From Treponemataceae bacterium (GTDB lineage: Bacteria; Spirochaetota; Spirochaetia; Treponematales; Rectinemataceae), in contig CAXXVZ010000003.1 of NCBI GenBank assembly GCA_963678065.2, forward strand, positions 896,001 to 960,000: a DNA stretch of 64,000 nucleotides. Reading direction: 5' to 3'. Of this stretch, positions 23,172 through 41,765 are shown in pieces. The notes under the pieces were generated by a model. That model did not search any database. It was not told where the DNA came from and saw only the letters and a list, made by a program, of their open reading frames with translations. The number at the start of each line of letters is the position of its first letter. Position 1 is the first letter of the stretch. The translations under genes and the position numbers were made by a program.

Positions 23172-25895
23172 TCAGCGCGATTGAAGCCTTTCACGGAATT
23201 CCGAAAGTTTGACAAGGGCCTTGAGGGGTGTCATGGACTCGATATCGAGTCCCGTCAACTCGGCCAGGACAAGGTCCCCGGCAGAAAAGAGGTCGCTCTG
23301 CGCATCGTGGACCAGCCGTACGGAATGTTCTGACAGCTCATGGCGTGACTTTCCGGTCCGCGAGGGCTCGGGTACCGCAACAAAGCGCTCCGTCCCCACG
23401 AGGCGTGATTGCTTTTCCTGCACGGCTTCGCCTTCCGTTTCGCCGCGCTCCGGATGACTCGGAAGGGACTGTTCTGCCTTCTCGAGCTGCGCCTGAATTG
23501 CCTTCGCCCGCTTCACCACATCTGAGGGCATGCCCGCGAGCCGGGCGACATGGAGCCCGAAGGAGCCCGTTGCGGGTTTCGCCTCGATGCGCTTCAGAAA
23601 GACGATATCGCCTTCCTCTTCGAGGACAGAGGGGCTCAGGTTGAAGAGCCGCGGGTGGACGAGGGCGGTCAGCTCGTGGTAGTGGGTGGCGAAGAGAGTG
23701 CGGCAGCGGATGGAATCGAGGAGTCGCTCGCTCACCGCCCAGGCGATGGCGAGTCCGTCCACCGTGCTCGTCCCCCTGCCCACCTCGTCCATGATAACGA
23801 GGCTGTCCGCCGTAGCGGTGTTGAGTATGTGCGCAGTCTCGTGCATCTCGACGAGGAATGTGCTCTCGCCCCGCGCGAGGTTGTCCTGAGCTCCGACACG
23901 GCAGAATATCTTGTCCACGACGCCGATTTCCGCCTCCTCGGCGGGAACGAAGGAGCCGCACTGGGCCATGAGGACGATGAGGGCTGTCTGTCGGAGAAAG
24001 GTGGATTTTCCGGCCATGTTGGGGCCCGTTATGAGGGCGAAGGAAGCGCCGCCAGCGTCGATATCGAGCCCGTTCGGCACGAACGCGGATTCTCCGAGCC
24101 ATGCTTCCACGACGGGGTGCCGACCCTCCCGGATGTGGATGGCCTTCCCCTCTGTGAGGTGGGGCCGCGAGTAGCCTCGGGCCGTCGCCACCCAGGCGAA
24201 GGCGGCGATGCAATCCTGGACGGCCGCGAGTCGACCCATCGAGAGAAGCTCGGGGACGACAAGCTTCACCTGTTCGCGCAGCGCAAGGAAGAGGCTCTTT
24301 TCGAGTTCGGTGATGCGCTCCGTCGCTCCATTGATCTCGCTCTCGAGTTCGGAAAGGCGGGCCGTCGTGTACCGCTCTCCCGTCACGAGGGATTGCCTTC
24401 GGATGAAGTGGGAGGGAACCGATTCCAGTTTCCCCTTGGAGACTTCGAGGTAATATCCGATTATGCGGTTGTATCGCACTCTGAGATTGGGAATGCCCGA
24501 AGTCGAGCGCTCCTCTTCGAGATAGGAGTCGAGGACAGTCGCCGAATCCTGCTTGATCGCCCGCAGTTCGTCGAGCTGGGTATTGTATCCTGAGCGGATG
24601 AGGTTGCCCTCGGTGATGAGGATGGAGGGATCTTCCTTGATGGCGGAATCGATCAGCCCGGCAATTTTTGAGGCCGAACCTGAGGCCGAATCCCCGCCAT
24701 CTCCTCCCAGAATTCCGGGTGCCCCCGCGCCCGCGAGGAGGGATCTGGCCTTGAGGCAGGCGCGGACGGAATCGCGGATCGCGAGAAGGTCTCTCGCGTG
24801 CGCCTTGTCCATGGCTGTCCGCGAGGCGAGTCTCTCGATGTCGAGGACGCGGCCGAGACTCTCCCGCAAGGCGTTGAGGAGGGACTGGTCGCGGTAGAGA
24901 AACTCGACGGCATCCAGCCGCTCGCTCGCGGCCGAGCAGGAAGCCAGAGGCTGGAGGAGCCACTGTCTGAGGAGGCGGGCCCCCGGAGCAGACTTGGTCG
25001 CATCGAGGACTCCGAGGAGGCTGCGGTTTTTCCCGGAATCCGAAAGGTTGCGCAGTATCTCGAGATTTTTGCCGGAGCCCTCGTCGATGCCCACGAATTC
25101 CCCCTCGTCGTGGGGCAGGAGGGCGGAAATCTGGGGTGAGGTGGTCTTCACGGTCTCGTCGACATAGCGCAGGAGGAAGGCGGCGGCGGCGAGCTCCGGC
25201 TCCTCGCCCGAGAAGCCGAGGCCCTTGAGGGAGGCAAGCCCGAATCTCCTGCAGAGATCTTTGGCGGCCATCGAGGCGTCGAAGCTCCAGTCGGGATATT
25301 TGCCGACCATGAGCCCCTCCACCCCCGCGACGACCTGGGCCAACTCCGGCGATTCGAGGAGGGATTGCTGGATGAGGAGTTCCCGCGGCATGAGGCGCGA
25401 GAGTTCGGCCGCGAGAAATCCGGGAGCGGCGCGGGCTCCGGGATCGGGCCTTGACAGGGCCCTGAAGTCTCCCGTAGAGACATCCAGCCAGGAGATGCAG
25501 ATCTTCTCTTCCAGTCTGCAGACGGCGACGATGTAGTTGTTGGCCGCCTGGTCGAGGAAGTCTTCCTCGACGGTGGTGCCGGGGGTGACGACTTCGACGA
25601 CATCGCGCCTGACTATTCCCTTCACGCTTCCCGGCACGTCGAGCTGCTCGCAGATGGCGACCTTCTTTCCGTGCTTAAGGAGGCGGGCGATGTAGGGCTT
25701 CGCGGCGTGGTATGGAATGCCGCACATCGGTTCACCCTGTCTGTGCGTCAGGGTGAGGTCGAGAAGGGCCGAGACCTCGAGGGCATCCTCGAAGAACATT
25801 TCATAAAAATCCCCGAGCCTGAAAAAGAGGACGGCGTCCCGGTAGCGCGCCTTCACTCCCTTATACTGCTCCATCATCGGAGATTTTTCTGTCAT
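23172..25895 (-). CDS. mutS: DNA mismatch repair protein MutS
   Basis: SPMMEQY, FFRLGDFYEMF, TGPNMAGKST, DEVGRGTS and FATHYHEL motifs. Start MTEKS overlaps the skp stop. Confidence 0.97.
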   Translation of the reverse strand: MTEKSPMMEQYKGVKARYRDAVLFFRLGDFYEMFFEDALEVSALLDLTLTHRQGEPMCGIPYHAAKPYIARLLKHGKKVAICEQLDVPGSVKGIVRRDVVEVVTPGTTVEEDFLDQAANNYIVAVCRLEEKICISWLDVSTGDFRALSRPDPGARAAPGFLAAELSRLMPRELLIQQSLLESPELAQVVAGVEGLMVGKYPDWSFDASMAAKDLCRRFGLASLKGLGFSGEEPELAAAAFLLRYVDETVKTTSPQISALLPHDEGEFVGIDEGSGKNLEILRNLSDSGKNRSLLGVLDATKSAPGARLLRQWLLQPLASCSAASERLDAVEFLYRDQSLLNALRESLGRVLDIERLASRTAMDKAHARDLLAIRDSVRACLKARSLLAGAGAPGILGGDGGDSASGSASKIAGLIDSAIKEDPSILITEGNLIRSGYNTQLDELRAIKQDSATVLDSYLEEERSTSGIPNLRVRYNRIIGYYLEVSKGKLESVPSHFIRRQSLVTGERYTTARLSELESEINGATERITELEKSLFLALREQVKLVVPELLSMGRLAAVQDCIAAFAWVATARGYSRPHLTEGKAIHIREGRHPVVEAWLGESAFVPNGLDIDAGGASFALITGPNMAGKSTFLRQTALIVLMAQCGSFVPAEEAEIGVVDKIFCRVGAQDNLARGESTFLVEMHETAHILNTATADSLVIMDEVGRGTSTVDGLAIAWAVSERLLDSIRCRTLFATHYHELTALVHPRLFNLSPSVLEEEGDIVFLKRIEAKPATGSFGLHVARLAGMPSDVVKRAKAIQAQLEKAEQSLPSHPERGETEGEAVQEKQSRLVGTERFVAVPEPSRTGKSRHELSEHSVRLVHDAQSDLFSAGDLVLAELTGLDIESMTPLKALVKLSEFRERLQSR

Positions 25896-26452
25896 TGAGT
25901 CTTGCCGGATAGAGATTTCAGGACCATGTCCGTGATGTCGATGGAGGGACTGTACCAAAGCACGGGGCTCGCCGAGGAGTCCCCACCCCGCAACGAGAGG
26001 ACGATCGAGTACCCATCGGCCTCCGCCGAGGCCTGTATCTGTCGGTTGACTTGCTGGACATAGATCGGAGAAGGAGGCATTTTCCGGGCGAGGTCCTCGA
26101 GTAAGGGCTGCTTCAGCTTGATGTAGTCGCGCAGCTCGTCCATTTTCGCGGCGATTTCGGCATCCATCTGAGCAGAAACGGTCTGGTTTCCCTCACGGTC
26201 CGCGTCGGCCTTCCGCGCCTGCAGACTGCGGATGACATCGCTCATCCTGTCGATCTCGGCCTGGACCTCGGATTTTTTCTGGTCGAAATCGCGGAGGGCG
26301 GCCGGGTCCCGGGGGAGTGTGGCGAGTATGCGCGACAGATCGACCACGGCGATGCGGGTCAACTGCTGAGCGAAGGCCGTGCCCGTGCCCAGGGCGAAAA
26401 GGGCAGCAAGCACGGCGACACGAAAGAGGCGATGTATCCGGTTCATCGTCAT
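25892..26452 (-). CDS. skp: OmpH/Skp periplasmic chaperone
   Basis: Signal peptide, RIAVVDL, coiled coil, GYSIVL and DITDMVL; directly downstream of bamA. Confidence 0.88.
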   Translation of the reverse strand: MTMNRIHRLFRVAVLAALFALGTGTAFAQQLTRIAVVDLSRILATLPRDPAALRDFDQKKSEVQAEIDRMSDVIRSLQARKADADREGNQTVSAQMDAEIAAKMDELRDYIKLKQPLLEDLARKMPPSPIYVQQVNRQIQASAEADGYSIVLSLRGGDSSASPVLWYSPSIDITDMVLKSLSGKTQ

Positions 26453-26492
26453 GCGTCTCCTTCCCTGATCTCCCGGGACCATGCCCGGGAGT

Positions 26493-29009
26493 TTACAGCG
26501 GCTGTGTGATGCTCAGGACGAACTCGAGCCCAGTTCCCGAAGTCTTCCATGTGACCGCGCTGCCGTCGAAGGTGAAGCGTTTCAGGAAGTAGAAGCGGAA
26601 CGGAAACTGCGAGATCGCGAACCTGAAGCCGAATCCCGTGCTGAAGGCCATATTGTCCCAGCCGAGATCCGCGAAAGTCGGCTTCGTCGGATCGGCGGCG
26701 GGCGCAGTGCCCGTCATGTCCATGAGTCCCTTCGTGGACTGCATCGCGGCCGCATCGAGGAAGCCATCGAGCCAGAGAACCTGGTCGATGAGTGGCATGC
26801 GCAGTTCGATGGAGTTTTCCCAGAATGCCACGCCACTCTGACCGTAGAGGCTCTTCCAGCCGCGGGCGTTGAAGGTTCCGTCGAGACTGATGTAGCTGTC
26901 GACGACGCTCAAGGCCGTGCCGGGCTGGGCGAAGAGTGCCTGGAAGCCGGAGTGGACGCCGAGAACCCACTTGAAGCGCCAGGCATCGGTGATGGGGATG
27001 TTGAAGATGGTCGCGTAGGCTTCGAGCTTGGTCTCTGACTTGATGAAGTGCTGGTACTCGAAGGGGAAGAAGCCGTTCCAGGTCAGGCGCTCTCCTGCGA
27101 AGAATCCCGAGGAGGGGTTGTACCAGAGGTCGAGGTTGTTGAGGTAGACCCGGGTCGTGAACTTGTTGTCTATGAGCCACTGCCCGACGTACTGCCGCAT
27201 GGACTTGAGGTAGGGTCTGTACTTGTCGGAATCGTAGTCCCAGCGGGTCACGCCGAAGGAGAGGCCCGCGTTGAGGCCGACATCACCCGCCGGCGTGTGG
27301 AACGAGTAGCCGGAAGAGGCGCCGATGCTCGACGACCAGTCCTCGTAGGGCATGAGATACTCGTCGGGGATGGAGGAGAGGGAGCCATCCCAGGGATTCG
27401 TTCCGGTATTGATGCCGTTGAAGGGATCGGGAATGTCTTCATCGGTATAGATCGGATCGAGACTGTCCTGTCCTGTGGTCTTGGACGCGTGGGAGAAGGA
27501 AAGGTCGATGCTGTACGATATCCTCTTGCCGAAGAGCCAGTTCTCGCCGTAGCCGAAAACGAGGCTCTGTGTGTCGGGGGAGCCGGTACCTTCGATCTTG
27601 AGAGTCCTGCCCATGCCAAGGAAGTTGCGGTCGTTCCACTTCACCTGGCCCGAAATCGGGAAGGTGTTGGGGTCGCCGAACCCGCTCAGGGTCACGCCGA
27701 ACTGGATGTTGGCCGTGCTCTGCTCCTCGACGGCTATGGAGAGATCCATGAGATTCTCCGCCGAGCCCTGCTGCATGTCGGGCTGGACAGCCGAGAAGTA
27801 CTGGAGATTGTAGAGATTGCGCAGGCCCTCGACGATTTTAGCCTTGGAGAAGATGTCGCCGACCTCGAGAGGCATCTCGCGCGAAAGGACGAAATCCTTG
27901 GTCTTCGTGTTGCCCTTGAAGCTGATGGTCGCGATGTGGGCGCGGTCGCGCTCGACGATCTTGATCTCGTAGGCTATCGACACGGAGGCGGGGTCCCTCT
28001 TCTCGACCATGTCGATCGTGTTGAAGATGTAGCCCGACTCGTAGTACAGGTCGTCGATCCTCTGTTTGTCCTGGTTGAGCTTGCGCTCGCTGAGGAGGGC
28101 TCCGGTCTTCTGGTAGACTTGCGCGGAGAGCTTCGCGGTGGAGAACACCTTGTTCCCGGTGAACGTGATTCCGCCGAAGGTCCACTGCTTGCCTTCCGAC
28201 AGGGCGAAGGTGAGGACAAGCCAGGTCTTTCCGCTCTTCGCGTCCTTGTCGTAAGTCCTGATGACATCGAGTATGCGGGCGTCGATGTATCCCTTGTTCC
28301 TGTAATAGCTCAGTATGGCCTGCTTGCTCGACTCCAGCTGGGACTCCTGGAAGATACCGCTCTGGAAGAGGGCGGCCTCCTTCAGCTCCATCTGGCCTTT
28401 GAGGATATTGGCGGATACGGCCGAGTTGCCTGTAAACCTGAGTTCGCGGACGGCGACTTTGGACCCTTCGGTGATCTTGAACGAGAGGACAATCTTGCCC
28501 GCATCGTTCCCCGGGCTGGATGACCAGGACAGGGCCGCGTCGGGATAGCCTTTTTCAGCGTAGAGTTTGCGCAGGGCGGCGAGATCAGAGGCGGCCTTGT
28601 CGGCGTTGAAGATTGTCCCTTCCTTGGAAACGATGACTCCGAGGAGCTCGTTGGTCCGCAAGCCCTCGTTGCCGGCGAAGCGGACGGCCTCGACAGAAGG
28701 TTTTTCCGTCACGGTGAACTTGATGACGACGCGGGTTTTGGTCTCGTTGGCGGGGAGGGCCACCGGTTCGATAGTCTCGAACCAGTCGAGTCCGTAGACG
28801 GCAGCCTGTATCTCCAGCCAGTTCTCTTCAGTGAAAGTCTTCCCGACATAGGGTCGGGTCACCGCGTCGAGTTCCTTGCGTGGCGCCTGCTTGAGACCTT
28901 CCCACTGGACCGATTCTATGGGTTTGTTCCAGAACCAGTCGTCGGCGGTCTGCGCGCCGAGGACGGCAGCCGACAGGGCCAGGACAAGGAGGGCGATGCT
29001 GTGCTTCAT
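26493..29009 (-). CDS. bamA: Outer membrane protein assembly factor BamA
   Basis: POTRA motifs (YAEKGY, YRNKGY, GNTKTKDFVLSRE, NLQYFS), RNFLGMG barrel start, ARGW loop and GFGFRF. Confidence 0.95.
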   Translation of the reverse strand: MKHSIALLVLALSAAVLGAQTADDWFWNKPIESVQWEGLKQAPRKELDAVTRPYVGKTFTEENWLEIQAAVYGLDWFETIEPVALPANETKTRVVIKFTVTEKPSVEAVRFAGNEGLRTNELLGVIVSKEGTIFNADKAASDLAALRKLYAEKGYPDAALSWSSSPGNDAGKIVLSFKITEGSKVAVRELRFTGNSAVSANILKGQMELKEAALFQSGIFQESQLESSKQAILSYYRNKGYIDARILDVIRTYDKDAKSGKTWLVLTFALSEGKQWTFGGITFTGNKVFSTAKLSAQVYQKTGALLSERKLNQDKQRIDDLYYESGYIFNTIDMVEKRDPASVSIAYEIKIVERDRAHIATISFKGNTKTKDFVLSREMPLEVGDIFSKAKIVEGLRNLYNLQYFSAVQPDMQQGSAENLMDLSIAVEEQSTANIQFGVTLSGFGDPNTFPISGQVKWNDRNFLGMGRTLKIEGTGSPDTQSLVFGYGENWLFGKRISYSIDLSFSHASKTTGQDSLDPIYTDEDIPDPFNGINTGTNPWDGSLSSIPDEYLMPYEDWSSSIGASSGYSFHTPAGDVGLNAGLSFGVTRWDYDSDKYRPYLKSMRQYVGQWLIDNKFTTRVYLNNLDLWYNPSSGFFAGERLTWNGFFPFEYQHFIKSETKLEAYATIFNIPITDAWRFKWVLGVHSGFQALFAQPGTALSVVDSYISLDGTFNARGWKSLYGQSGVAFWENSIELRMPLIDQVLWLDGFLDAAAMQSTKGLMDMTGTAPAADPTKPTFADLGWDNMAFSTGFGFRFAISQFPFRFYFLKRFTFDGSAVTWKTSGTGLEFVLSITQPL

Positions 29010-29025
29010 GGTGCTCCTCACGGAT

Positions 29026-32000
29026 TCAAAAGGAAATTTTCCAACTCAGACTGAGGCTTTGGTCGCTGATAAACAAACTATCGGAGAGACTCGGGGATAC
29101 ATTCCATCGCAACAATCCGAAAGGAGTTTCAAATTCAACGCCGAATTCGGAGTCTAGACGCAAATTGGTCGAGGTAACAAGAGGGTCCTCTTTGAGACGG
29201 AGGGCGGCGTGGAGGAAGGCGGATTTGCCGAGGAATTTGCCCGCGTAGAGGTATGTGTTGTCGAGGTAGCTGCCTAGGCTGTTCCCGCTGCTGCCCACGA
29301 CGACGGGTTGGGAGATGTCATAAAGCCAGCGTTGGAAGAAACTGCTCCGGAGGTAGAAGACGTCGAGTCCGAGCGCTTCCCTGACACGCCACTCGAAGGC
29401 TTTGACCACATTGAGCTGGGGCAGGAATTCGGAGGAGCCGATGAAAGCTTCCCTGAGCCCCACCTCGCCCGATGAACCGGTGGAGAGAACACCTCCTCCG
29501 AGCAGGGAAACGAGCTGTGCCTCCGTCATGGTGGGATCGGAGCTCAGCCTCGGATTGAGGTTGGACAGGGGGCTGCGGTCGGCGCTGAGAGTGATGGTCA
29601 CGGGGCCTTTCGTATCCACTTCACGCAGCTCGGCCGACAGGCTGATCCGAGGATCGAAATAGGCGTTGGACTCGGCGAATTCGACCTGTCCGCTCTTGAG
29701 GAAGAAATTGCGCAGATAATAGAAGGCGTAGCCGCTGCGCAGGACGAGGATCCCGTCCAATTTGAAATCGCCGGACTCCTGGTCGAATTTGAGTTTGAGG
29801 GCGCTCGATGGATCCGCGCTGCCGGTGATGAGGGGCAGATCCTTGGAAGGAAGGAATACCTGAACCCTGCGTCCGAAGCCGAATTGCGCATCCAGATAGA
29901 CCTTGATGCCATCCTGCGGAGCCTGCGCCTCGCCCTGTCCCATGAAAAGTCCGGGATTGACCACTACGTCCCCGCTCTCCAGATTCATCGTTCCAACGAG
30001 TTCGAGGAGTTCTCCCTTGAGTTCGGCGTTCAGGTTGACGTGCGCGACGCCTTTCTCGATGAGGATGCCCGCTATCTTGCCGGACACGCCGACCGTGGCG
30101 TTGCCTTTCGTGTTGAGCTTGCCCGAGAGGCTTGCGAGATTCCAGTGATCGAGGCTCACCTGAAGGGAGAGTTCGGCCGCTCCGTTGCCTATAGAGACCT
30201 TCGGCGCCGAGAAATAGAGGTTCTTTCCTTCCAGTACAAGGGGGACGGAGAAGGGACCGATGGGCTCCTCGAGGTAGCCCTGAAGGCGGACTACGACATC
30301 CTTCAGATTGAGGTTTCCGTTCAGGTCGGGGTCGTCCAGGGGGCCCGCGACGGTGAAAGATCCCGATGCCTTGCCTTTTTCGATCCGGAGGAGCCCCTCG
30401 GTCACGTCGGGACCGAGATCCGCGAAGTTGAGCTCGAACCCGGAGACGGCGGCGGCGATGACGCCTTCCCTGAATGTCCCTTTGATCTTCGCGACGACAG
30501 GAACGGGCCGAGAGAGATTCAGTTCGAAATTCCCGTCTTTTTCGTAACGGCCGGAGACTTCGTCCCCCTCGCTGTCGACGGATATCCTGCCACTCTGACT
30601 CACGACGTTGATTCGCCATTCAGAAATGTCGATCCGCCGGAAGGTCAGGGATTGGACATCAAGTTTGAGGTTGTAGGAATCGACGATGGAGGAGAATGAA
30701 GAGCCCGAAGGAGCTCCCGAGGTTCCTGACCCTTTGATCACGGTCTGCAGTCTGTCGCTGCCGAAGACCCCCGTGTACGGGATGGCGAAATCGAGCGCTC
30801 CGCTCGCGGGATCCAGGGAGACCGACGCGCCCGTTATCTCGTGGTTTATGTAAGAAGCGTCGAGCTTCGTCACATTGAAGACGCCTTTATCCAGATTCCC
30901 CGTGAAGGAAAGACTGAGGGGAACCGAGTTGTATTCGCCATTAGCCAGCTTCCCGGAAAAAACCGCGAGAGGAAGGCCCGAAAGTCCTGGCGCGGCGAGG
31001 TCGAAGGCACCATCGAAGGAAGCAGTCATGTCGAGTTCTCCGCGGATGCCCGTCCCGGGAGAATCGGGATTCTGCGCCTTCATGGTGGCGGAAAGATCAT
31101 TGATCAGATTCCCGGCCGTGGCCTGGAGAGAATTCTCGTCCGCGGCCGCGGAGAGAGCAGTTCCTGCGGCGGTCGAAACAGCCGGAGTTGCGGTATTGTC
31201 TGGAATTGTAGGACTGGCAGAAGCTCTGCTCTCGCCAGAAAGACCTCCACCGAAGAGACGCTCGATGGGGAATCCCTTGAGGTCGATGGAACCCTTGAGC
31301 GAGCCGTCACGGTATCCCGCATCCACACTCCAGCTCTCCTGCCCCCACCTCCCCCTCTCTCCTTCACCCCCTTCCCGTTCCAGCCTCCCCTTCACCTCCA
31401 CCCCACCCTTCACCTCTTCCCCATACCGGATACTCACCGGCCCTTTCAGCTTCCTTCCCCACCCCTCCACCACCACTTCCGCCAGCTCCACCTCCCCTGC
31501 CTTCCCCTTCAGACTCCCCCTTATCTTCGGTATCGGACTCTCCTTACCCCCCGCTCCCGCCACCGAAAACTCCACCCCCTCGACCCTCCACTCCTTCCCA
31601 CTACGATACTCTCCCTTCCCCCTCGCCATCACATTCACCACACCCATCCCTTTCCCCATCGGGACCGGCACACCTCCCACTCCAAACCCTACCGCGTACC
31701 CTCCCCCTGCTTCCCGCTGCACCTCCACCTCGATCCCGTAATCCCCCTTCGCCTCCACACTCCCGTCCGCCTTCGCTTTCCCCTCTATCCCGTACTCGAT
31801 CCCTTCATACTTCGCTTTCACCCGAAACCTCAGATCCCCTCCTGCCTCAAAATCTACCCGCCCCTCCCCCTCGACTTCCTTACCCCCCGCCTCGATCTTC
31901 ACGTTCTTCACTTCCGCGTAGTCCCCGTTCCCCACTCCCGCACATCCCAGACTGAACCCTTCCCCTCCACTCACCTTCATCCCCGGCGCGTTCCACGACA

Positions 32001-35000
32001 CCTTCCGGAAATCGCTCGTCGCATACACCCGCCCGGTCGCACGAAGCCCCCTCAGCACCCGCAAGTCTTCCGTCTTCCCCGTCACCGCCCCGTACACCAC
32101 ACCCACACTCCCCAGCCGATACCCCTCAAGGTCCACTTCCCCTTCCGCTCGCAGCTCCCCTGTCCTGTCCAGCCTCACCTGAACCGACACTTCTCTCCCC
32201 TTCCCCTCTTTCCCTCTCCCTAGCCCTCCCTTCAGCTCTACTACCTTGCTCCCCACCTTCGCCTCTATCTCCGGCTGCGCATACTCTTCATCCCCCACTC
32301 GCAGCGTCGCTCCTGCAAGCCGATACTCTCCCTTCCCCCCCTTCACCGCGAGTTCCGTCTGCCCTCCTTTCTCACCCCCCTTCCCCTTCAACTCCAGCCC
32401 AAGCAGTCCATCCACGGTGAGCCCTTCAAGCCCTACCTCTCCTGCAAAACTCCCGCTCACCACTCCGTACTCAAGCCGCGCTTCCTCGATCTTCACGGCC
32501 TGCCCTCGCCCTTCACCTTTCACCCTCAGCCCCGTCACCCGATTCGACTCCCCCGATACCCCGGCCCCCCCCACCGCACTCCCCGATGCCGCTCCTACAG
32601 GGCTAGCCCCTCCTGCACCCTCTCCTTCTCCTTCACTCCCGATATCCACCGCGTACTCCGCCCTCCTTCCCTCCAACCCAGGCACACCCAACCGGATGCT
32701 CCCTGTATAGGCTGTCCGCAGGAAATCAGTCAGCCAGGCAGGAGGCGCTTCCGCGGCGATCATATCCACGGGCCGGAGTCCGGAGAGGGCGAGTGAAAGG
32801 CCGAAATCGCCGGACCCGAGATCCAGGGAAGCGTTCGCAGACAATCCATCCTTCGACGCCCTTTGCATCGCGAGCCGGGAACCGTTGAAATCGAGATCGA
32901 ACCTTTGTTCGGCAACACTGAAGGCTTTGGACCGGTATCCGGCCATCATCTGACCTTTCAGGGCGGTCTGCCCTTGCCCGGACGCAGAGCCGGAATTCTT
33001 GCCCAGGATACTGGAGAGATCGACCGGCCCGCGGAGGTCGATGAAGCCGTCGACAAGGCCGTCCACGGCGACGCCGGGTATCCTCGACATCTGAAAACCT
33101 CTGACTTCGGCCTTTCCCGCGAGGTTTCCTCGCGCGACCGAAACGTCGAAATCCCAGGATTCCCCGGAGGCAGACAGGCTTCCCTTCAGCGATGCGGAGC
33201 CTTCCGAGCCGGTCGGGTAGAGTATGTCGGCCTTCCCGACAAGGGCTGTCGCCCCAGATCCGAGACTCAGATCGGATAGGGCGATGGAGCCTGGACGGAG
33301 GCGTGCCTTCGCGAGAATGGTGGGGATCCGACTTTCCTTGCCGCCTGCAGGACGTAAGGCGAGGCGGGAAAAATCCAGATGCCAGTCGCCGGGAGCCTTG
33401 TATCCGCCAAGGAGGGTGAAACTCGCGTTCACCACGCCGAGTTCGGAGTCGAAAGGCAAGGGGAGATCTTCCGCTGTCGCCTCTGCCGAGTAGCTCCCCG
33501 CACTTTGTGAAACAAGAACCCTGAGGCCGTGATTTCCCTGGATAAGGAATTTTCCATCAGCATCGGTGGAACCGGAGACTGTGTAGCTCGCTCCGTTCCA
33601 CTGTATTTCCGACGAGAGCCGCGCGGAGAGTCTGGACGGATCGATCCTTATTCCGGCAGGGAAACCGAGGTCGAGAACGGTGTCGATCGCCCGCGCGGGC
33701 CCGGCCGTCACGAGGGGAGCCGTTATCGTATAGGCGTTCCGGGCACCCTTTATACCAAGGTCGGTCCGTATCGGGAAGCCTCCGGGTTTCTGGGCGCCAA
33801 TGGCGATCAGTGCGCTTCCATCCACCGACATGTCCGCGAGGCCTATCCGTCCGGCAAACTCCACCCTGTCCGCGCCGCGAGAGAAGGAGAGCTTCCTCAC
33901 CTGCATGTTCGCGGCTGTCCCGTCGGCATCGAGGGCCAGCGACAGACCTGTGCCACCTCCCGTGGCCTCGACGACTCCCGTCTCCGCCGGAACGGACAGG
34001 AAACTTGTTCCACTCTGTCCTTCCAGCTTCGCCGTGAAGGCCGCCTTCCCGAAATCCCCGGCCGGCACCTTCAGCTCCAGCTTGCCCGTGAGAGGCATCC
34101 CGAAGAAAGCGGAGAAATCCTTCGACGCAGTTTTCAGGTCGACGAAGTCGGAAAGGCGGAAATCGCGCAGTGACAGGCCGGCAACCAGATCCTTCCCCGC
34201 CGGAGCATACGTTGCTGCGATCGAGATGCCGTCCCTGTCGGGCAGATGCGCTTCGATTTTCTTCCCATCAAACGAGATATCGAAACGTCTTTCGGCGACA
34301 TCGAATGAAGGAGATCGCAGGCCCGCCATGAGTCTGGCCTTGATAGTGCCGGGACCCGCAGGGTCGCCGAGTCGGGCAAAATCGAAGGGGCCTTCGAACG
34401 AGAGATATCCGTCGGCTTCTGCCTCGGGAGCGTCGGAATACAGTCGTCGGATGGGGAATCCCTTGAGGTCGATGGAACCCTTGAGCGAGCCGTCACGGTA
34501 TCCCGCATCCACACTCCAGCTCTCCTGCCCCCACCTCCCCCTCTCTCCTTCACCCCCTTCCCGTTCCAGCCTCCCCTTCACCTCCACCCCACCCTTCACC
34601 TCTTCCCCATACCGGATACTCACCGGCCCTTTCAGCTTCCTTCCCCACCCCTCCACCACCACTTCCGCCAGCTCCACCTCCCCTGCCTTCCCCTTCAGAC
34701 TCCCCCTTATCTTCGGTATCGGACTCTCCTTACCCCCCGCTCCCGCCACCGAAAACTCCACCCCCTCGACCCTCCACTCCTTCCCACTACGATACTCTCC
34801 CTTCCCCCTCGCCATCACATTCACCACACCCATCCCTTTCCCCATCGGGACCGGCACACCTCCCACTCCAAACCCTACCGCGTACCCTCCCCCTGCTTCC
34901 CGCTGCACCTCCACCTCGATCCCGTAATCCCCCTTCGCCTCCACACTCCCGTCCGCCTTCGCTTTCCCCTCTATCCCGTACTCGATCCCTTCATACTTCG

Positions 35001-36837
35001 CTTTCACCCGAAACCTCAGATCCCCTCCTGCCTCAAAATCTACCCGCCCCTCCCCCTCGACTTCCTTACCCCCCGCCTCGATCTTCACGTTCTTCACTTC
35101 CGCGTAGTCCCCGTTCCCCACTCCCGCACATCCCAGACTGAACCCTTCCCCTCCACTCACCTTCATCCCCGGCGCGTTCCACGACACCTTCCGGAAATCG
35201 CTCGTCGCATACACCCGCCCGGTCGCACGAAGCCCCCTCAGCACCCGCAAGTCTTCCGTCTTCCCCGTCACCGCCCCGTACACCACACCCACACTCCCCA
35301 GCCGATACCCCTCAAGGTCCACTTCCCCTTCCGCTCGCAGCTCCCCTGTCCTGTCCAGCCTCACCTGAACCGACACTTCTCTCCCCTTCCCCTCTTTCCC
35401 TCTCCCTAGCCCTCCCTTCAGCTCTACTACCTTGCTCCCCACCTTCGCCTCTATCTCCGGCTGCGCATACTCTTCATCCCCCACTCGCAGCGTCGCTCCT
35501 GCAAGCCGATACTCTCCCTTCCCCCCCTTCACCGCGAGTTCCGTCTGCCCTCCTTTCTCACCCCCCTTCCCCTTCAACTCCAGCCCAAGCAGTCCATCCA
35601 CGGTGAGCCCTTCAAGCCCTACCTCTCCTGCAAAACTCCCGCTCACCACTCCGTACTCAAGCCGCGCTTCCTCGATCTTCACGGCCTGCCCTCGCCCTTC
35701 ACCCTTCACCCTCAGCCCCGTCACCCGATTCGACTCCCCCGATACCCCGGCTCCTCCCTCCGCACTCCCCGATGCCGCTCCTACAGGGCTAGCCCCTCCT
35801 GCACCCTCTCCTTCTCCTTCACTTCCGATATCCACCGCGTACTCCGCCCTCCTTCCCTCCAACCCAGGCACCCGCACCCGGATATTCCCTGTATAGGAGT
35901 CGTCGAGCAGAGCCTGGGTATTTGCGGATTTCGTGACGACTGCGGAGATCTTTGCCGGGACAAAATTCTTGAGATCGACCGACGCGGAGAGGTTCTTGTC
36001 TTGCAGGTTCAGGACGGCTCGCGCGGCCAGCCCCTCGGAGGCAGGGCGGTCGAGCTCGAACCTCGATCCGTCGAAAGAAATGTTGAAACTCTGCCCGGAA
36101 ACCGAAAATCCCTCGGCCCTGTACCCTATCAGTATCTTGCCCCGGAAAGAACTCAGTATGGGATTGAACGAGAGTCCGAATTCGAGCGGTCCCGAGACAG
36201 AGAAACCGTTCCCCGCCGGAGAAAGAGAGTAATTCCCGTTCAGGAATGACAAAGCCGGCACAGCTTCCTTTGTGGAAAACGTGATGAGCGCCGAATCCAG
36301 CCGATAGCTTCCGCCTCCGGCAGTACCCCCCGCATTAGCTCCAGAGGTCCCGCCGGAAGTACTGCCGGTATCTCGCAGTTCCATCACGGTGTCCGTGAGA
36401 CGGATCGAGATGGGCGGAGGTGTCGAGGCGGGGCCCGATCCGAGGAGTTTACGGAGCTTTTCCGCCGTGTCGGCGTCTCCCGGGAGGACGAGAGAGAGTC
36501 TGGTCTTGTCGAGGCGGATATCTTTGACTATGTGGCGGCTGTCACCCGCGACGAGGGCGGGAAGACTGTAGAGGACCGAGAGCCTGCCTGCCGAAAGAAG
36601 GACGCTGCCGTCAGGACGCGAGAAGCGTATCCCGTTCAGAGTAAGGGAACTCAGAATCGAGGGGGAGATCGAGGAAAACCGGAGATCGAGGCCGAGTTCC
36701 TTTTTGACGTATGTCTGAAGGTCGACGACAATGGAGCCGGCCTTCCTGCTGACCGCACGGTACACCAGCGGCGTCGCTGCGAGGAAGAGGATTATGAATG
36801 CTCCTGTCGCGGCGAAAGCCCGCCTGCGCTTCACCAT
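29026..36837 (-). CDS. tamB: Very large TamB/AsmA-like (bridge-like) envelope protein, 2603 aa, with internal duplication
   Basis: N-terminal TM anchor, beta-rich body and TamB-like C-terminus (FDPRISLSAE, LSSDPTMTEAQLVSLL, aromatic terminal strand WKISF). Directly upstream of bamA, as in other spirochetes. Confidence 0.85.
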   Translation of the reverse strand: MVKRRRAFAATGAFIILFLAATPLVYRAVSRKAGSIVVDLQTYVKKELGLDLRFSSISPSILSSLTLNGIRFSRPDGSVLLSAGRLSVLYSLPALVAGDSRHIVKDIRLDKTRLSLVLPGDADTAEKLRKLLGSGPASTPPPISIRLTDTVMELRDTGSTSGGTSGANAGGTAGGGSYRLDSALITFSTKEAVPALSFLNGNYSLSPAGNGFSVSGPLEFGLSFNPILSSFRGKILIGYRAEGFSVSGQSFNISFDGSRFELDRPASEGLAARAVLNLQDKNLSASVDLKNFVPAKISAVVTKSANTQALLDDSYTGNIRVRVPGLEGRRAEYAVDIGSEGEGEGAGGASPVGAASGSAEGGAGVSGESNRVTGLRVKGEGRGQAVKIEEARLEYGVVSGSFAGEVGLEGLTVDGLLGLELKGKGGEKGGQTELAVKGGKGEYRLAGATLRVGDEEYAQPEIEAKVGSKVVELKGGLGRGKEGKGREVSVQVRLDRTGELRAEGEVDLEGYRLGSVGVVYGAVTGKTEDLRVLRGLRATGRVYATSDFRKVSWNAPGMKVSGGEGFSLGCAGVGNGDYAEVKNVKIEAGGKEVEGEGRVDFEAGGDLRFRVKAKYEGIEYGIEGKAKADGSVEAKGDYGIEVEVQREAGGGYAVGFGVGGVPVPMGKGMGVVNVMARGKGEYRSGKEWRVEGVEFSVAGAGGKESPIPKIRGSLKGKAGEVELAEVVVEGWGRKLKGPVSIRYGEEVKGGVEVKGRLEREGGEGERGRWGQESWSVDAGYRDGSLKGSIDLKGFPIRRLYSDAPEAEADGYLSFEGPFDFARLGDPAGPGTIKARLMAGLRSPSFDVAERRFDISFDGKKIEAHLPDRDGISIAATYAPAGKDLVAGLSLRDFRLSDFVDLKTASKDFSAFFGMPLTGKLELKVPAGDFGKAAFTAKLEGQSGTSFLSVPAETGVVEATGGGTGLSLALDADGTAANMQVRKLSFSRGADRVEFAGRIGLADMSVDGSALIAIGAQKPGGFPIRTDLGIKGARNAYTITAPLVTAGPARAIDTVLDLGFPAGIRIDPSRLSARLSSEIQWNGASYTVSGSTDADGKFLIQGNHGLRVLVSQSAGSYSAEATAEDLPLPFDSELGVVNASFTLLGGYKAPGDWHLDFSRLALRPAGGKESRIPTILAKARLRPGSIALSDLSLGSGATALVGKADILYPTGSEGSASLKGSLSASGESWDFDVSVARGNLAGKAEVRGFQMSRIPGVAVDGLVDGFIDLRGPVDLSSILGKNSGSASGQGQTALKGQMMAGYRSKAFSVAEQRFDLDFNGSRLAMQRASKDGLSANASLDLGSGDFGLSLALSGLRPVDMIAAEAPPAWLTDFLRTAYTGSIRLGVPGLEGRRAEYAVDIGSEGEGEGAGGASPVGAASGSAVGGAGVSGESNRVTGLRVKGEGRGQAVKIEEARLEYGVVSGSFAGEVGLEGLTVDGLLGLELKGKGGEKGGQTELAVKGGKGEYRLAGATLRVGDEEYAQPEIEAKVGSKVVELKGGLGRGKEGKGREVSVQVRLDRTGELRAEGEVDLEGYRLGSVGVVYGAVTGKTEDLRVLRGLRATGRVYATSDFRKVSWNAPGMKVSGGEGFSLGCAGVGNGDYAEVKNVKIEAGGKEVEGEGRVDFEAGGDLRFRVKAKYEGIEYGIEGKAKADGSVEAKGDYGIEVEVQREAGGGYAVGFGVGGVPVPMGKGMGVVNVMARGKGEYRSGKEWRVEGVEFSVAGAGGKESPIPKIRGSLKGKAGEVELAEVVVEGWGRKLKGPVSIRYGEEVKGGVEVKGRLEREGGEGERGRWGQESWSVDAGYRDGSLKGSIDLKGFPIERLFGGGLSGESRASASPTIPDNTATPAVSTAAGTALSAAADENSLQATAGNLINDLSATMKAQNPDSPGTGIRGELDMTASFDGAFDLAAPGLSGLPLAVFSGKLANGEYNSVPLSLSFTGNLDKGVFNVTKLDASYINHEITGASVSLDPASGALDFAIPYTGVFGSDRLQTVIKGSGTSGAPSGSSFSSIVDSYNLKLDVQSLTFRRIDISEWRINVVSQSGRISVDSEGDEVSGRYEKDGNFELNLSRPVPVVAKIKGTFREGVIAAAVSGFELNFADLGPDVTEGLLRIEKGKASGSFTVAGPLDDPDLNGNLNLKDVVVRLQGYLEEPIGPFSVPLVLEGKNLYFSAPKVSIGNGAAELSLQVSLDHWNLASLSGKLNTKGNATVGVSGKIAGILIEKGVAHVNLNAELKGELLELVGTMNLESGDVVVNPGLFMGQGEAQAPQDGIKVYLDAQFGFGRRVQVFLPSKDLPLITGSADPSSALKLKFDQESGDFKLDGILVLRSGYAFYYLRNFFLKSGQVEFAESNAYFDPRISLSAELREVDTKGPVTITLSADRSPLSNLNPRLSSDPTMTEAQLVSLLGGGVLSTGSSGEVGLREAFIGSSEFLPQLNVVKAFEWRVREALGLDVFYLRSSFFQRWLYDISQPVVVGSSGNSLGSYLDNTYLYAGKFLGKSAFLHAALRLKEDPLVTSTNLRLDSEFGVEFETPFGLLRWNVSPSLSDSLFISDQSLSLSWKISF
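31264..32685. repeat. ~1.42 kb direct repeat in tamB, copy B (C-proximal)
   Basis: Matches 34450-35871 at offset 3186; only 5 mismatches found by eye. Confidence 0.97.
34450..35871. repeat. ~1.42 kb direct repeat in tamB, copy A (N-proximal)
   Basis: Matches 31264-32685; encodes VPGLEGRRAEYAVDIG...GSIDLKGFPI. Confidence 0.97.
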
Positions 36838-36893
36838 CTATTCGGTTCCTTTCTCGTGGACGTCGACCGGTTATGACAGTATACTCCGGATCG

Positions 36894-37541
36894 ATGGACA
36901 ATGCTGCCGAAAAATCGATCTTCAAGCGTTTTGTCGTCCTCGAAGGCATCGACGGAGCCGGAACGACGACCCAGCTGGGCAGGCTGCGCGATGCCCTCAC
37001 CAGGGCGGGAATGCCGCACTGGCCGACCTGCGAGCCCACATCGCGCCCCGAGGGAGCCCTCATCCGGCGCATCCTCGGCGGCGAGCTTCCGGCCCACCCC
37101 GGCACGGTCGCCCACCTCTTCGCCGCCGACCGCCACGAGCATCTCTACGGGGCCGGAGGCATCGTGGAACACCTCGCCGCCGGCGACATAGTGATCAGCG
37201 ACCGCTATGTCCTCTCGAGCCTCGCCTACCAGGGAGCCACCTGCGGTTTCGAGCTCCCAATGAAGCTGAACGGGGATTTCCCTCTGCCCGGGCTGACCCT
37301 CTTCTTCGATGTCGATCCCTCCCTTTCCATGGCGCGCCTCGCCTCGCGCAGCCACTTGGAGATATACGAGAAACAAAGTTTCCAGGAAAAGGTTGCTGAT
37401 TGTTACGAGGAAGCCCTGGAAACCCTCGCCCGCGCGGGAGCCGAGGCCATTCGGATCGATGCCTCACTGTCGCCCGCGGAGGTCACCGCCCAGGTTTTCC
37501 GCGCTGTCGGCAAGAGTCTCAGAATCGACCTGAGGCCCTGA
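36894..37541 (+). CDS. tmk: Thymidylate kinase
   Basis: EGIDGAGTTTQ, LFAADR and SDRYVLSSLAYQG motifs. Start MDNAAEK. Confidence 0.96.
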   Translation: MDNAAEKSIFKRFVVLEGIDGAGTTTQLGRLRDALTRAGMPHWPTCEPTSRPEGALIRRILGGELPAHPGTVAHLFAADRHEHLYGAGGIVEHLAAGDIVISDRYVLSSLAYQGATCGFELPMKLNGDFPLPGLTLFFDVDPSLSMARLASRSHLEIYEKQSFQEKVADCYEEALETLARAGAEAIRIDASLSPAEVTAQVFRAVGKSLRIDLRP

Positions 37542-37595: not shown

Positions 37596-38615
37596 CTACC
37601 TGATCAGCATCGCGTCCCCGTAGCTGAAAAAGCGGTATTTTTCTCGCACGGCCGCCGCGTAGGCATCCAGTATCCTCTGTCTTCCCGCGAAGGCCGACAC
37701 GAGCATGAGGAGGGTCGACTTGGGCGTGTGGAAATTGGTGAAGAGCCTGTCCACGACCTTGAAGGTGTACCCCGGATAGATGAAAATCCTCGTGCTGCCC
37801 GGCCCGGCCGCGAGGCCTCCTTCGGCCCAGGCGGACTCGAGGGTCCTGAGACTCGTCGTCCCGACGGCGACGACGGGCCGTCCCTGGGACTTGGCGCGCG
37901 CGACGGCTGCTGCCGTTTCGGCCGGAACGGAGTACTCCTCCTCGTGCATGAGGTGGTCCTCGATCCGCTCCGAACGCACGGGAAGAAAGGTTCCGAGCCC
38001 CACGTGCAGCGTCACCCAGGCGCTCTCGATTCCTTTGGCCGACAGCGAGTCGAGAATCTCGGGCGTGAAATGGAGGCCCGCAGTCGGCGAGGCGGATGAT
38101 CCGACATTCTTCGAGTACACGGTCTGGTAGCGCTCGGCGTCGGAGGGGACGTCCTCCCTCTTTATATATGGAGGAAGCGGAATGTGGCCAACGCGGTCCA
38201 GGTAGTCTTCGCCGATGGGCGGAGAGAATCTGATCGTCCGCGTGTCCTCGCGCGCGTCGACGATTTCGCCCGATACGCCCTCGGGAAAGGAGTACAGCCG
38301 CCCGGGTCTCTGCCGTTTCGCCTTGGTGCAGGCGGCTTCCCAGACATCCGGACCCTGTCTCCGAAGAAGCAGGAACTCGACCCCGGAGCCGGTATCGCAG
38401 GCGGTTCCGAAGAGCCTCGCCTTCCTGACCCGCGAATCGTTGAACACCATGAGGCTGCCGGCTTCGACAAAGGAAGCTATATCGCGGACCATGGAGTGCG
38501 TCAGCCGCCCCGAGGCGCGGTCCAGAACGAGGAGACGGGAATCGCCGCGATTTCCTGTCGGAAACTGGGCGATTTGCTCCTCGGGCAGTTCAAAACTGAA
38601 ATCGTCCGTCTTCAC
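37596..38615 (-). CDS. queA: S-adenosylmethionine:tRNA ribosyltransferase-isomerase
   Basis: [29 protein letters not shown] and [10 protein letters not shown] motifs. Confidence 0.97.
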
Positions 38616-39726
38616 GGGGCAGCTCCATGCCGAGATGTCTGTAGGCGGCGCTCGTCGCGACGCGGCCGCGCGGCGTGCGCGCTATCATGCCCGCCTGAAT
38701 GAGGTAGGGTTCGTAGAAGTCCTCGAGGCTGTCCACGCCCTCCCCGACGGTGATGGCGAGGGTTTCGGCGCCGACCGGCCCCCCCCCGTACTTCAAGATA
38801 ATGGCCTTCAATATTTCGCGGTCCAGGCGCTCGAAACCGAGCGGGTCCACCTCGAGGCGGGCGAGCCCCGCCTGCACGATGCGCTTCGTGACGATGGGGG
38901 AGCCTTCCACTTGGGCGAAGTCGCGCATGCGGCGCAGAAGGCGGTTCGCGATGCGCGGCGTGCCTCTGCTCGTGAGCGCGAGCAGCGCCGTCGCGTCCGG
39001 GTCCAGTTCGACGCCGAGGATGCCGGCGGAGCGTCGGATGACGAGCTCGAGTTCGGCGGGCTCGTAGTAGCTGAAGCGCATGCTGATGCCGAAGCGGCTC
39101 GCGAGGGGGGCCGAGACGGTGCCCGCCTTCGTCGTCGCCCCGACGAGGGTGAAGGGCGGAACCGGCACGCGGACCGTGCGGGCGGCTGGCCCCTGGCCGA
39201 TGACCCAGTCCAGTTCGAAATCCTCCATCGCGATGTAGAGCATCTCTTCTATGGCAGGTTTCAGCCGGTGGATCTCGTCGATGAAGAGGACGGAGCGCTC
39301 GCGCAGTGTCGTGAGGATTCCCGCGACATCCTTGGGCTTGTCGAGGGCGGGCGCGCTCGTCGGCTTGAAATCGACGCCGAGTTCCGTCGCGACGACGAGG
39401 GCGAGAGTTGTCTTGCCGAGTCCCGGAGGCCCCATCAGGAAGACATGGTCGAGGGCTTCCCCGCGCTCCCGCGCGGCCCGTATGAAGAGGCTCAGATTCT
39501 CCTTGATCCGGGTCTGGCCCTGGAACTCCGAGAGGACGTGGGGCCGGAGGGTGTTCTCCCTGCCGTCCTCGGCGGGGTCATACGAGGGATCCATCGGAGT
39601 CAGATGCGTGATCGCGGCCTTATCGGGAACTGCGATCTCATGCGGGATACCGGACCCGATCCTGTCACCATACTCCGCGATCTCTCCCGGCTGACTGGCC
39701 GCGCCTGTTTTTTTCCGTGCCGCCAT
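38590..39726 (-). CDS. ruvB: Holliday junction helicase RuvB
   Basis: [30 protein letters not shown] and RTPRGR motifs. Confidence 0.97.
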
Positions 39727-39729
39727 GGA

Positions 39730-40338
39730 TCAACCTCCCGCGGAGAGCTCGATGAGGGCTCTCCGGAAAATCTCGCGCTCGCGGTCGGGTCCGGGCGGGA
39801 TTTCGCCCGCGTGGCTGCGGACAGATTTTTCCGCGGCGGGCCTGGCGAAACCCATGTCGACGAGGGCGCGGATGACATCCGACCACTCTCCCCCGCCTGA
39901 GCCCGCGGAATGCAGGGTCCTGACCGAATCCTCGACCCGGACGAGCTTGCCCTTGAGCGCGAGCAGCATCTTCTGGGCCACCTTGGGACCGACGCCAGGG
40001 ATGCGCATCAGCGTGGCGAGGTCGCTGTCGTCCAGGGCGCGGACCAAGGACTCGGAGCGGATGCCCGAGACGATGCGCATGGCCTGTTTGGGGCCTATCC
40101 CCTCGACCTTCATGAGCTCGAGGAAGACGGTCCTGTCCTCGACGTTGGAGAAACCGAAGAGGCGCATCCCGTCCTCGTAGTGGTGAAGCCAGGTGTAGAC
40201 CTTGGTCTGTGCGTCGAGGAAGCCGAAGTCGTCGAGCGAGCGGGTGGGGACGGTTATTTCCCACTCCACTCCTCCCGTGTCGACGCAGACGGAATCGGGC
40301 CGCTTCTCGGAAAGCCTGCCGGAAATGCTGTTGAACAT
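39730..40338 (-). CDS. ruvA: Holliday junction binding protein RuvA
   Basis: LFGF, VEGIGPK, IPGVGPKVA and ALVDMGF motifs. Confidence 0.96.
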   Translation of the reverse strand: MFNSISGRLSEKRPDSVCVDTGGVEWEITVPTRSLDDFGFLDAQTKVYTWLHHYEDGMRLFGFSNVEDRTVFLELMKVEGIGPKQAMRIVSGIRSESLVRALDDSDLATLMRIPGVGPKVAQKMLLALKGKLVRVEDSVRTLHSAGSGGGEWSDVIRALVDMGFARPAAEKSVRSHAGEIPPGPDREREIFRRALIELSAGG

Positions 40339-40471
40339 GGTTTTTGCAGTATAGCAGAAGCGCAGGGGGAGGTCTGCCCTGCCCTTCTTGTCGTGTTTTA
40401 TTTATGAGGCACCGCGCCCTGCGCGGAATTTTGCTCCCGGAATCCGGATCACAGACGCTTAGGGCGGCCAG

Positions 40472-41008
40472 TTAAGGCTTGAGCCTCGACAGGGCGCCCT
40501 CGTTGTGCCAGCGGCAGATCGCGGCGGCGAGGGCATCGGCGGCGTGGTCAGGTTTCGGGACCTCCGGCAGTCCGAGGAGGATGCGCACCATCTCCTGCAC
40601 TTGAGCCTTATCGGCGCGGGCCGAGCCGGTGACGGCCTGCTTGATCGCGGTCGGGGAGAGGTCGGCGAGGGGAACGCCGGCCATGGCGAAGGCGAGGCGG
40701 ATGACGCCGCGGGCCTCGGCCACGGGGAGGGCGGAGGTGACGTTGCGGAAGAAGAACAGCGATTCCATGCCGCCGAAAGTTGGCTGCCAGATCCCGATGA
40801 GATCCCTCACCCTGTCGTGGATGTCGCTGAGCCTGTCGGCGAGGGGGCTGTCGGAAGGGGTCGTGAAGCAGCCGTATTCGAGGAGTTTCATGCTTGTGCC
40901 CGCGACATCGATGAGTCCGTAGCCGATGGAGGCGAGGCCGGGGTCTATCCCGATGACGCGAAGGGCCGGACCGCCTCTCGGCTGTCCGGCCCCAGGTTGC
41001 GCTTTCAC
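40472..41008 (-). CDS. ruvC: Crossover junction endodeoxyribonuclease RuvC
   Basis: IGIDPG, ESLFF, AEARGV, KAQVQEMV and DHAADALA motifs. Probable GTG start at 41008. Confidence 0.95.
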   Translation of the reverse strand: MKAQPGAGQPRGGPALRVIGIDPGLASIGYGLIDVAGTSMKLLEYGCFTTPSDSPLADRLSDIHDRVRDLIGIWQPTFGGMESLFFFRNVTSALPVAEARGVIRLAFAMAGVPLADLSPTAIKQAVTGSARADKAQVQEMVRILLGLPEVPKPDHAADALAAAICRWHNEGALSRLKP

Positions 41009-41027
41009 GCTTCGGTCCGCCGCAGTA

Positions 41028-41765
<738 letters not shown>

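Follow-up and report, generated by a model that had tools for sequence, protein, structure and literature searches.

The tamB gene described here lies in a 64,000-nucleotide stretch (the window) of the genome of a bacterium of the Rectinemataceae (Treponematales, Spirochaetota), and encodes a TamB protein of 2603 amino acids (aa) that carries two near-identical cassettes, R1 and R2. These cassettes are probably the cores of the first and third of three modules, kept near-identical by repeated RecA-type recombination within the gene, rather than the product of a fresh duplication. Recombination-driven homogenisation, together with evolutionary length change across the clade to which this protein belongs, is well supported.

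Architecture of the repeat and the modules

Base-by-base comparison defines two direct repeats, 31264-32685 and 34450-35871, each 1422 nt long and lying at an offset of 3186 nt, with five mismatches between them (99.65% identity). The repeat is in frame (3186 nt equals 1062 codons), its copies correspond to aa 323-796 and aa 1385-1858, and the 2603-aa frame stays open throughout. A first-pass annotation had claimed two near-identical in-frame cassettes of 1.42 kb, and in this it was right; its arithmetic is also correct, in that a crossover between the cassettes would give a protein of 1541 aa (2603-1062) and an unequal exchange one of 3665 aa (2603+1062). On the low-coordinate side of the repeat, 1254 nt are identical, an exact match beyond the reach of chance. 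All five mismatches (32518, 32566, 32569, 32573, and 32638 in the numbering of the left copy) fall within the last 168 nt on the high-coordinate side, which is the N-terminal side of the protein; only one of them alters the protein (V to E), the other four being synonymous. Outside the repeat, identity is 42-58% per 60 nt at the N-terminal edge and ~30% at the other edge, no further match exists at the offset of 3186 nt beyond the two cassettes, and the 5.27-Mb genome (5 contigs) contains just these two copies. Origin from a diversity-generating retroelement and origin from a mobile element were both considered and dropped; the tract is ordinary TamB module sequence and the genome has no extra copies of it, and for the retroelement the adenine-specific pattern is absent as well.

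A hidden Markov model (HMM) of the module, built from 20 ordinary-length relatives, finds a module of ~600 aa three times in this TamB, in the order N-terminus, U1, U2, U3, and C-terminus (Table 1). Piecewise BLASTP of the protein against itself indicates that the 99.8% identity between U1 and U3 is confined to the cassettes; aa 229-321 are just 33% identical to aa 1291-1383, and U2 is 26-29% identical to U1. Because the flanks are old paralogues and no other similarity exists at offset 3186, the repeat is not a simple tandem duplication, and the architecture is an old triplication with a homogenised core. The two cassettes of the first-pass annotation are therefore both real, but they give an incomplete picture, as three older modules are present and the near-identity is limited to the cores of modules 1 and 3. 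A crossover between the cassettes would remove the intervening Spacer B.

The near-identity might instead mean only youth: one recent segmental copy event, neutral and transient, after which no process continued to act. The small number of differences (just five in 1422 nt) fits such an event, and no relative closer than the protein P0002 was found by which it could be dated. This explanation is nevertheless quite improbable: the copies are not in tandem, the sequences flanking them are old paralogues that share 33% identity, and nested events account better than uniform ageing for all five differences lying within 168 nt at one edge. Further evidence against it comes from other strains and lineages, as described below.

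In an AlphaFold2 (AF2) model, U1 has 41 strands, is almost all beta, and reaches a mean predicted local distance difference test (pLDDT) score of 84. A second AF2 model across the U1/U2 junction has strands on both sides at a moderate pLDDT of 69. Foldseek of the U1 model against the PDB returned weak generic matches (ApoB100, LptDE, and OspA; TM <=0.25), and VIA-align matched it to porins at Z ~9 with no TamB chain among the matches, a result that does not show a different fold.

The repeat in public sequencing runs

The repeat can be followed in Logan contigs from six public runs, X15, X16, X17, X18, X19, and X20, which represent four samples from three studies, one possibly being the source of the assembly itself. 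Logan contigs pop bubbles, so that rare variants are hidden and only a large subpopulation is excludable; contig depth, moreover, is not copy number, and the depth ratios are read only as consistent with two copies. The contigs of X15, X16, X17, X19, and X20 end exactly at repeat boundaries. In X15, X16, and X17, the pieces are a contig covering 29101-31293, the 1422-nt repeat contig, a spacer contig covering 32656-34479, and a contig starting from 35842. The depth of the repeat contig against its neighbours is 50.4 against 23.1/27.9/24.3 in X15, 41.7 against 24.3/21.1/16.5 in X16, 29.5 against 18.7/16.3/16.8 in X17, 15-16.7 against 9.2/8.3/10.4 in X19, and 20.8-21.6 against 13.7/14.3/13.1 in X20. 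The repeat contig thus stands at ~1.6-2.0 times its neighbours in the five runs and the spacer at flank depth (ratios ~0.85-1.18), which is consistent with two cassette copies plus the spacer in essentially all cells. This comparison of repeat and flank depth, which had been proposed as a check along with the first-pass annotation, supports a genuine repeat at the contig level.

An assembly artefact, in which a misjoin or a strain chimera would have produced the second cassette and the spacer, has in its favour that the genome bin was scored as 6.72% contaminated and that repeats this long are well known to cause assembly errors. Such an artefact is nonetheless very improbable. In addition to the raised depth of the repeat contig, all four repeat junctions are reproduced by k-1 overlaps in the contigs of the six runs and three studies, the frame is open, the identical 2603-aa protein is recorded from two contigs, and homologous architectures are found in unrelated assemblies. 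Taken together, the junctions and the depths show that the repeat was not created by misassembly, and they reveal no large subpopulation carrying the deletion.

The same runs bear on a standing length polymorphism, in which one-, two-, and three-cassette alleles would coexist and a switch among them would tune the bridge formed by TamB to the width of the periplasm. The substrate for it exists, namely a recA-positive genome with direct repeats of 1.4 kb that are 99.65% identical, and in the relatives described below there are a natural one-cassette form in the nearest protein, P0002, 2.2 perfect periods in P0033, and module numbers from 1 to 4 across the clade. Against it, the depth of the spacer matches that of the flanks in X15, X16, X17, X19, and X20, no joint is reported in the contigs of any of the six runs, and no near-identical protein of another length, for example of 1541 or 3665 aa, occurs among 5.8 billion clusters within 1431-4556 aa. 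A standing polymorphism is accordingly unlikely. The earlier claim that cassette number switches within the population was not borne out by these data, and such switching is not shown. At the contig level, the architecture is unchanged in the four samples, including a strain ~98.5% identical to the window.

This strain, from which both X19 and X20 derive as one sample, differs from the window at about 1.3-2% of positions and has the same layout. Its repeat contig ends at 32697, 12 nt further out, its spacer contig spans 32668-34479, and its N-side contig starts at 35854; the 30-mer 32668-32697 is common to the repeat, spacer, and N-side contigs. At sites 32686, 32688, and 32691, the two copies differ in the window and are alike in this strain. 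The end of the tract differs between the two strains, and three changes within 6 nt fit a shifted conversion end better than three point mutations. The shift is indirect support for concerted evolution of the window's own cassettes, and a tract end that differs between strains is a further argument against a single recent copy.

Two smaller features of the runs may be mentioned here. In X19/X20, the repeat contig is interrupted at 31388-31416 / 34573-34603 by a pair of very short alternative contigs (31 and 49 nt) at single-copy depth, and the cassettes of that strain therefore differ at one internal site. In X18, the region 28500-37400 is fragmented but all of its parts are present, with loose ends at 29311, 29752, 32621, 33260, 33974, and 35897 that may reflect a strain mixture, low coverage, or structural variants; one contig of this run has R1-type letters at 32566, 32569, 32573, and 32638 beside the spacer, although words of 31 letters cannot phase them.

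Homogenised tracts and module number in the family

Sharp-edged identical tracts of 410-680 aa are found in six of 12 distinct multi-module TamBs, namely those of the window, P0006, P0036, P0037, P0033, and G059 (Table 1); in the other six, module identities are <=65%. Between P0036 and P0037 the C-terminus is 88%, the spacer 69%, and the cores 70% identical, and the two cores within each protein are 100% identical; compared internally at the repeat offset, the flanks in P0036 match at just 0-9%. This layout recurs in P0006 at 42-47% identity. Since the spacer of P0036 and P0037 is orthologous and the cores are 100% identical within but 70% between the proteins, the two-module layout is older than the split between the two proteins, and homogenisation of the cores came after it, a pattern that in these protein alignments amounts to concerted evolution. 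The occurrence of the sharp-edged pattern in five lineages besides that of the window, and its persistence through 30% core divergence in P0036/P0037, are again difficult to reconcile with a single recent copy.

Module number has changed as well. The closest relative, P0002, is 1484 aa long, has one module, and is 77% identical in the C-terminus. It is collinear with aa 1-803 of the window's protein and then with ~1833-2603, so that both the A/R and the R/C junctions are crossed, and this A-R-C architecture is exactly what a crossover between the cassettes would give. The three modules of P0003, whose C-terminus is 51% identical, are collinear with those of the window and are their positional reciprocal best matches (U3N to P0003-U3N, 63.5 bits; U2N to P0003-U2N, 42.4 bits). 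The C-terminal tree is (P0003, (window, P0002)100)99, with three modules in P0003, three in the window, and one in P0002. Given this tree and the reciprocity of the P0003 modules, a loss in the P0002 lineage is therefore likelier, convergent triplication being the alternative; this copy-number reasoning uses bit-score reciprocity and the C-terminal tree, not the short module trees. In the opposite direction, the 2.2 perfect periods of P0033 suggest that one 563-residue period was gained in frame very recently.

These changes stand out against the usual size of the protein. Among 24 complete TamB open reading frames (ORFs) in the family loci, 21 encode 1453-1576 aa, and the others encode 1993, 2900, and 2923 aa with 2, 4, and 4 modules, respectively; protein searches added lengths of 2660, 2073, 2058, 2028, 2491, 2006, and 2006 aa. 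The size of ~1400-1500 aa given for spirochaete TamB in the first-pass annotation, close to the 1541-aa deletion product, agrees with these relatives. Comparison of length across relatives also establishes that the architecture is not fixed but ranges from 1 to 4 modules. In flagellated genera, TamB has one module and 1442-1584 aa; in one flagellin-less clade it has 1-4 modules and up to 2923 aa. Indeed, in the 26 rows of the C-terminal tree, the multi-module TamBs all fall into one clade of seven (Shimodaira-Hasegawa-like approximate likelihood ratio test, SH-aLRT, 100), and 19/19 rows outside it have one module. Flagellin (PF00669) was not found in the genome of the window (G000; 99.94% complete) or in 13/24 other family genomes, including G010, G014, and G015 of the multi-module clade, and was found in the remaining 11/24 and in 16/16 genomes of other families. 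All multi-module TamBs with a tested genome are among the flagellin-negative genomes; this link is a single clade-level association and not a statistical test.

The repeats also leave a trace in assemblies. In 17/69 family genomes a contig ends inside tamB at positions equivalent to 1148-1322 of P0036, whose core 2 ends at 1280, and all 17 belong to genera whose tested representative is flagellin-negative. G082 has a contig whose last 55 nt exactly repeat an internal stretch, and the opening 122 nt of the C-terminal contig in G078 also occur inside its N-terminal contig; exact overlaps of this kind are those that a repeat produces. The 17 broken genomes (L008-L015, L026-L039, and L066-L079) are short-read metagenome-assembled genomes, and their surviving C-terminal ORFs encode 692-851 aa. 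P0034 is labelled 'partial' by its source. The surviving ORFs are likely to be repeat-induced fragments, not short proteins. As its repeats interrupt short-read assemblies of tamB at one common place in 17/69 genomes, many of the family's database entries for 'partial' TamB of ~750-850 aa are likely to be artefacts of the repeat.

Several points weigh against homogenisation by recombination as the explanation for the window. First, no recombinant molecule was seen in the contigs of the six runs, and the support within the species rests on contigs of this bubble-popping kind. Second, a 6-nt indel at 32621 and four substitutions separate X19 from X20, and the copies of that strain therefore also differ near the edge; the depth ratio of ~1.6 in these runs is compatible with more copy differences and does not exclude them. 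Third, the test for concerted evolution rests on protein sequences, not DNA, for P0036, P0037, and P0006, and the polishing step of long-read assembly could have inflated identity in these records. Fourth, the three modules of P0003 are not homogenised (U1 vs U3 ~21%), so that conversion is not universal. Fifth, loss in P0002 depends on the modules of P0003 being orthologous to those of the window, and short module trees are poorly resolved. Finally, conversion between modules without flanking DNA similarity needs an initial rare event that is not reconstructable.

The claim that the cassettes recombine thus stands in part: recombination over evolutionary time is indicated indirectly by the shift of the tract end, the A-R-C form of P0002, and the 2.2 periods of P0033, but no recombinant was seen. 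According to the homogenisation model, gene conversion or unequal exchange within tamB would keep the cassette cores alike, and the homogenising process of other lineages would act in this genome too. Occasional crossovers between the cassettes would remove or add 1062 residues; the P0002 lineage appears to have undergone such a loss and the P0033 lineage such a gain. The two-cassette form may be the one maintained in this species, and the number of modules would set the length of a lipid-conducting groove that docks on BamA.

The tamB locus and comparable systems

The uninterrupted tamB ORF lies on the minus strand, and its product matches Pfam PF04357 (TamB/DUF490) at aa 2314-2498 with 47.3 bits against a cut-off of 22.4; a precomputed domain list for this product also gives PF27414. 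A hydrophobic stretch near the N-terminus (~aa 8-26, by eye) is presumed to be a membrane anchor. G000 has one PF04357 match, so tamB is the sole TamB-family gene found there. Four nt downstream of tamB is a gene for a BamA-like protein of 842 aa with POTRA repeats (five Pfam stretches) and an Omp85 barrel, an Omp85-family protein encoded alongside that is the presumed docking partner of TamB; multi-module TamBs, like one-module ones, are paired with BamA across the family. The PF04357 match and the adjoining five-POTRA Omp85/BamA gene bear out the first-pass assignment of the gene to TamB. Its function in transport of phospholipids or outer membrane proteins (OMPs) between the membranes is predicted from family membership.

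Table 1. Features of the tamB locus in the window and identical tracts in other multi-module TamBs
Feature	Position	Strand	Evidence or remarks
tamB, 2603 aa	29026..36837	-	ORF, PF04357 match
N-terminal region, aa 1-198, presumed membrane anchor	36244..36837	-	61-68% identical to P0002
Module U1, aa 199-801	34435..36243	-	module HMM positions 6-602, E 1e-76
Cassette R1, aa 323-796, near-identical core of U1	34450..35871	-	repeat comparison
Module U2, aa 802-1262, old diverged copy without module positions ~244-416	33052..34434	-	HMM matches 835-1050, 1075-1260
Spacer B (1764 nt), aa 797-1384: last residues of U1, all of U2, start of U3	32686..34449	-	single contig at flank depth
Module U3, aa 1263-1869	31231..33051	-	HMM match 1296-1869, E 1e-76
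Cassette R2, aa 1385-1858, near-identical core of U3	31264..32685	-	repeat comparison; 1422-nt contig in X15, X16, X17
C-terminal region, aa 1870-2603, with TamB/DUF490 domain	29029..31230	-	77% identical to P0002, 51% to P0003
bamA-like gene, 842 aa	26493..29021	-	POTRA repeats and Omp85 barrel
skp/ompH-like chaperone gene, downstream of bamA	25892..26482	-	PF03938, E 3.9e-19
P0006 tract, 462 aa	aa 249-710 = 809-1270
P0036 tract, 474 aa	aa 244-717 = 807-1280
P0037 tract, 471 aa	aa 247-717 = 810-1280
P0033 tract, 680 aa	aa 479-1721		period 563, 2.2 perfect periods, 2 mismatches
G059 tract			1230 nt, 2 mismatches, flanks 25-38% identity

A recA gene is found in the genome, and ruvABC and mutS lie within the window: mutS just downstream of the tamB-bamA-skp cluster, and ruvB, ruvA, and ruvC just upstream, beyond queA at 37596-38615 (23172-25958 and 38590-41149 of the window). 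That recombination and mismatch-repair genes flank tamB is probably a coincidence. A 181-aa ORF (36831-37376, minus strand) without a Pfam match ends 7 nt inside the start codon region of tamB, and may be translationally coupled to it.

The nearest described counterpart is the TamB-BamA pair of Borrelia burgdorferi (BB0794/BB0795), which forms a hybrid BAM-TAM complex (PMC5582053, PMC11361582, PMC13382580). As in the accounts of that pair, a spirochaete tamB is located directly upstream of bamA with no separate TamA, and its product has a C-terminal TamB/DUF490 domain; the one-module relatives of the window's TamB have ~1450-1580 aa. Unlike the pair as described there, the window's TamB has 2603 aa and three modules, two of which share a near-identical core of 1.4 kb.

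As to mechanism, Periscope Proteins (SasG, Rib, and Sgo_0707) offer a parallel, in that their highly identical DNA repeats are proposed to enable intragenic recombination, by which repeats would be gained or lost (Whelan et al., 2021; PMC8201768). The two share a long, rod-like shape and extended DNA repeats of high identity (here 1422 nt at 99.65%), and both break the rule that adjacent domains are <50% identical. Periscope Proteins, as presented in that work, are cell-surface stalks of many adjacent small globular domains; the TamB of the window is by homology a periplasmic bridge, and in place of a tandem array it has two 474-aa tracts that are 588 aa (1764 nt) apart, with a 27%-identical module between them, inside a predicted continuous beta-sheet groove. 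Periscope repeat number is described as varying between close strains; for the window's TamB, no such variation was found in the four samples at the contig level, and module number varies between distant lineages. With neither adjacent tandem domains nor strain-level variation in number, this TamB therefore works like the Periscope class but is not a member of it. It is conceivable, though doubtful, that the TamB of flagellum-less Rectinemataceae is a periscope-like lipid bridge of adjustable length, in which the cores are selectively retained as recombination handles and in-frame gain or loss of ~560-1060 residues retunes length to an envelope geometry changed by the loss of periplasmic flagella.

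Lengthening by internal duplication also has a eukaryotic precedent, since the RBG bridges of VPS13C/D are reported to have been lengthened by internal duplications of ~500 residues, with domain number perhaps related to the width of the gap (Levine, 2022; PMC7613979). In VPS13C/D, as in the TamB of the window, the extra length comes from internal duplication of a repeating beta-groove, one that in TamB is predicted; the former duplications are given there as ancient, diverged, and eukaryotic, whereas the latter are bacterial, with cores that are near-identical in DNA and apparently actively homogenised. Literature searches on TamB with concerted evolution, gene conversion, or intragenic recombination, and with Rectinema, listed no paper that links TamB to lengthening of this kind or to recombination between repeats; none of the 10 papers listed by the former contained TamB. 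In bacteria, the paralogues tufA and tufB are reportedly in concerted evolution by gene conversion. Like tufA/tufB, P0036 and P0037 carry paralogous tracts whose similarity within a genome exceeds that of orthologues across genomes; unlike them, the tracts lie inside one gene and in frame, so that a crossover also alters the length of the protein. Perfect, sharp-edged tracts that persist through 30-55% divergence of orthologues make this an unusually clean case of intragenic concerted evolution, and one in an envelope-biogenesis gene rather than in a surface adhesin.

It is assumed that bridge-like lipid transporters, among them TamB, YhdP, and VPS13, must be as long as the gap they cross, and few natural length series of such proteins are known. 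The family provides one for TamB, with 1, 2, 3, and 4 modules, from ~1450 to 2920 aa, all paired with BamA, and makes the question of length versus periplasm width testable across species. The TamB of the window is almost twice the usual length, and recombination between its cassettes would allow bridge length to vary in the course of evolution.

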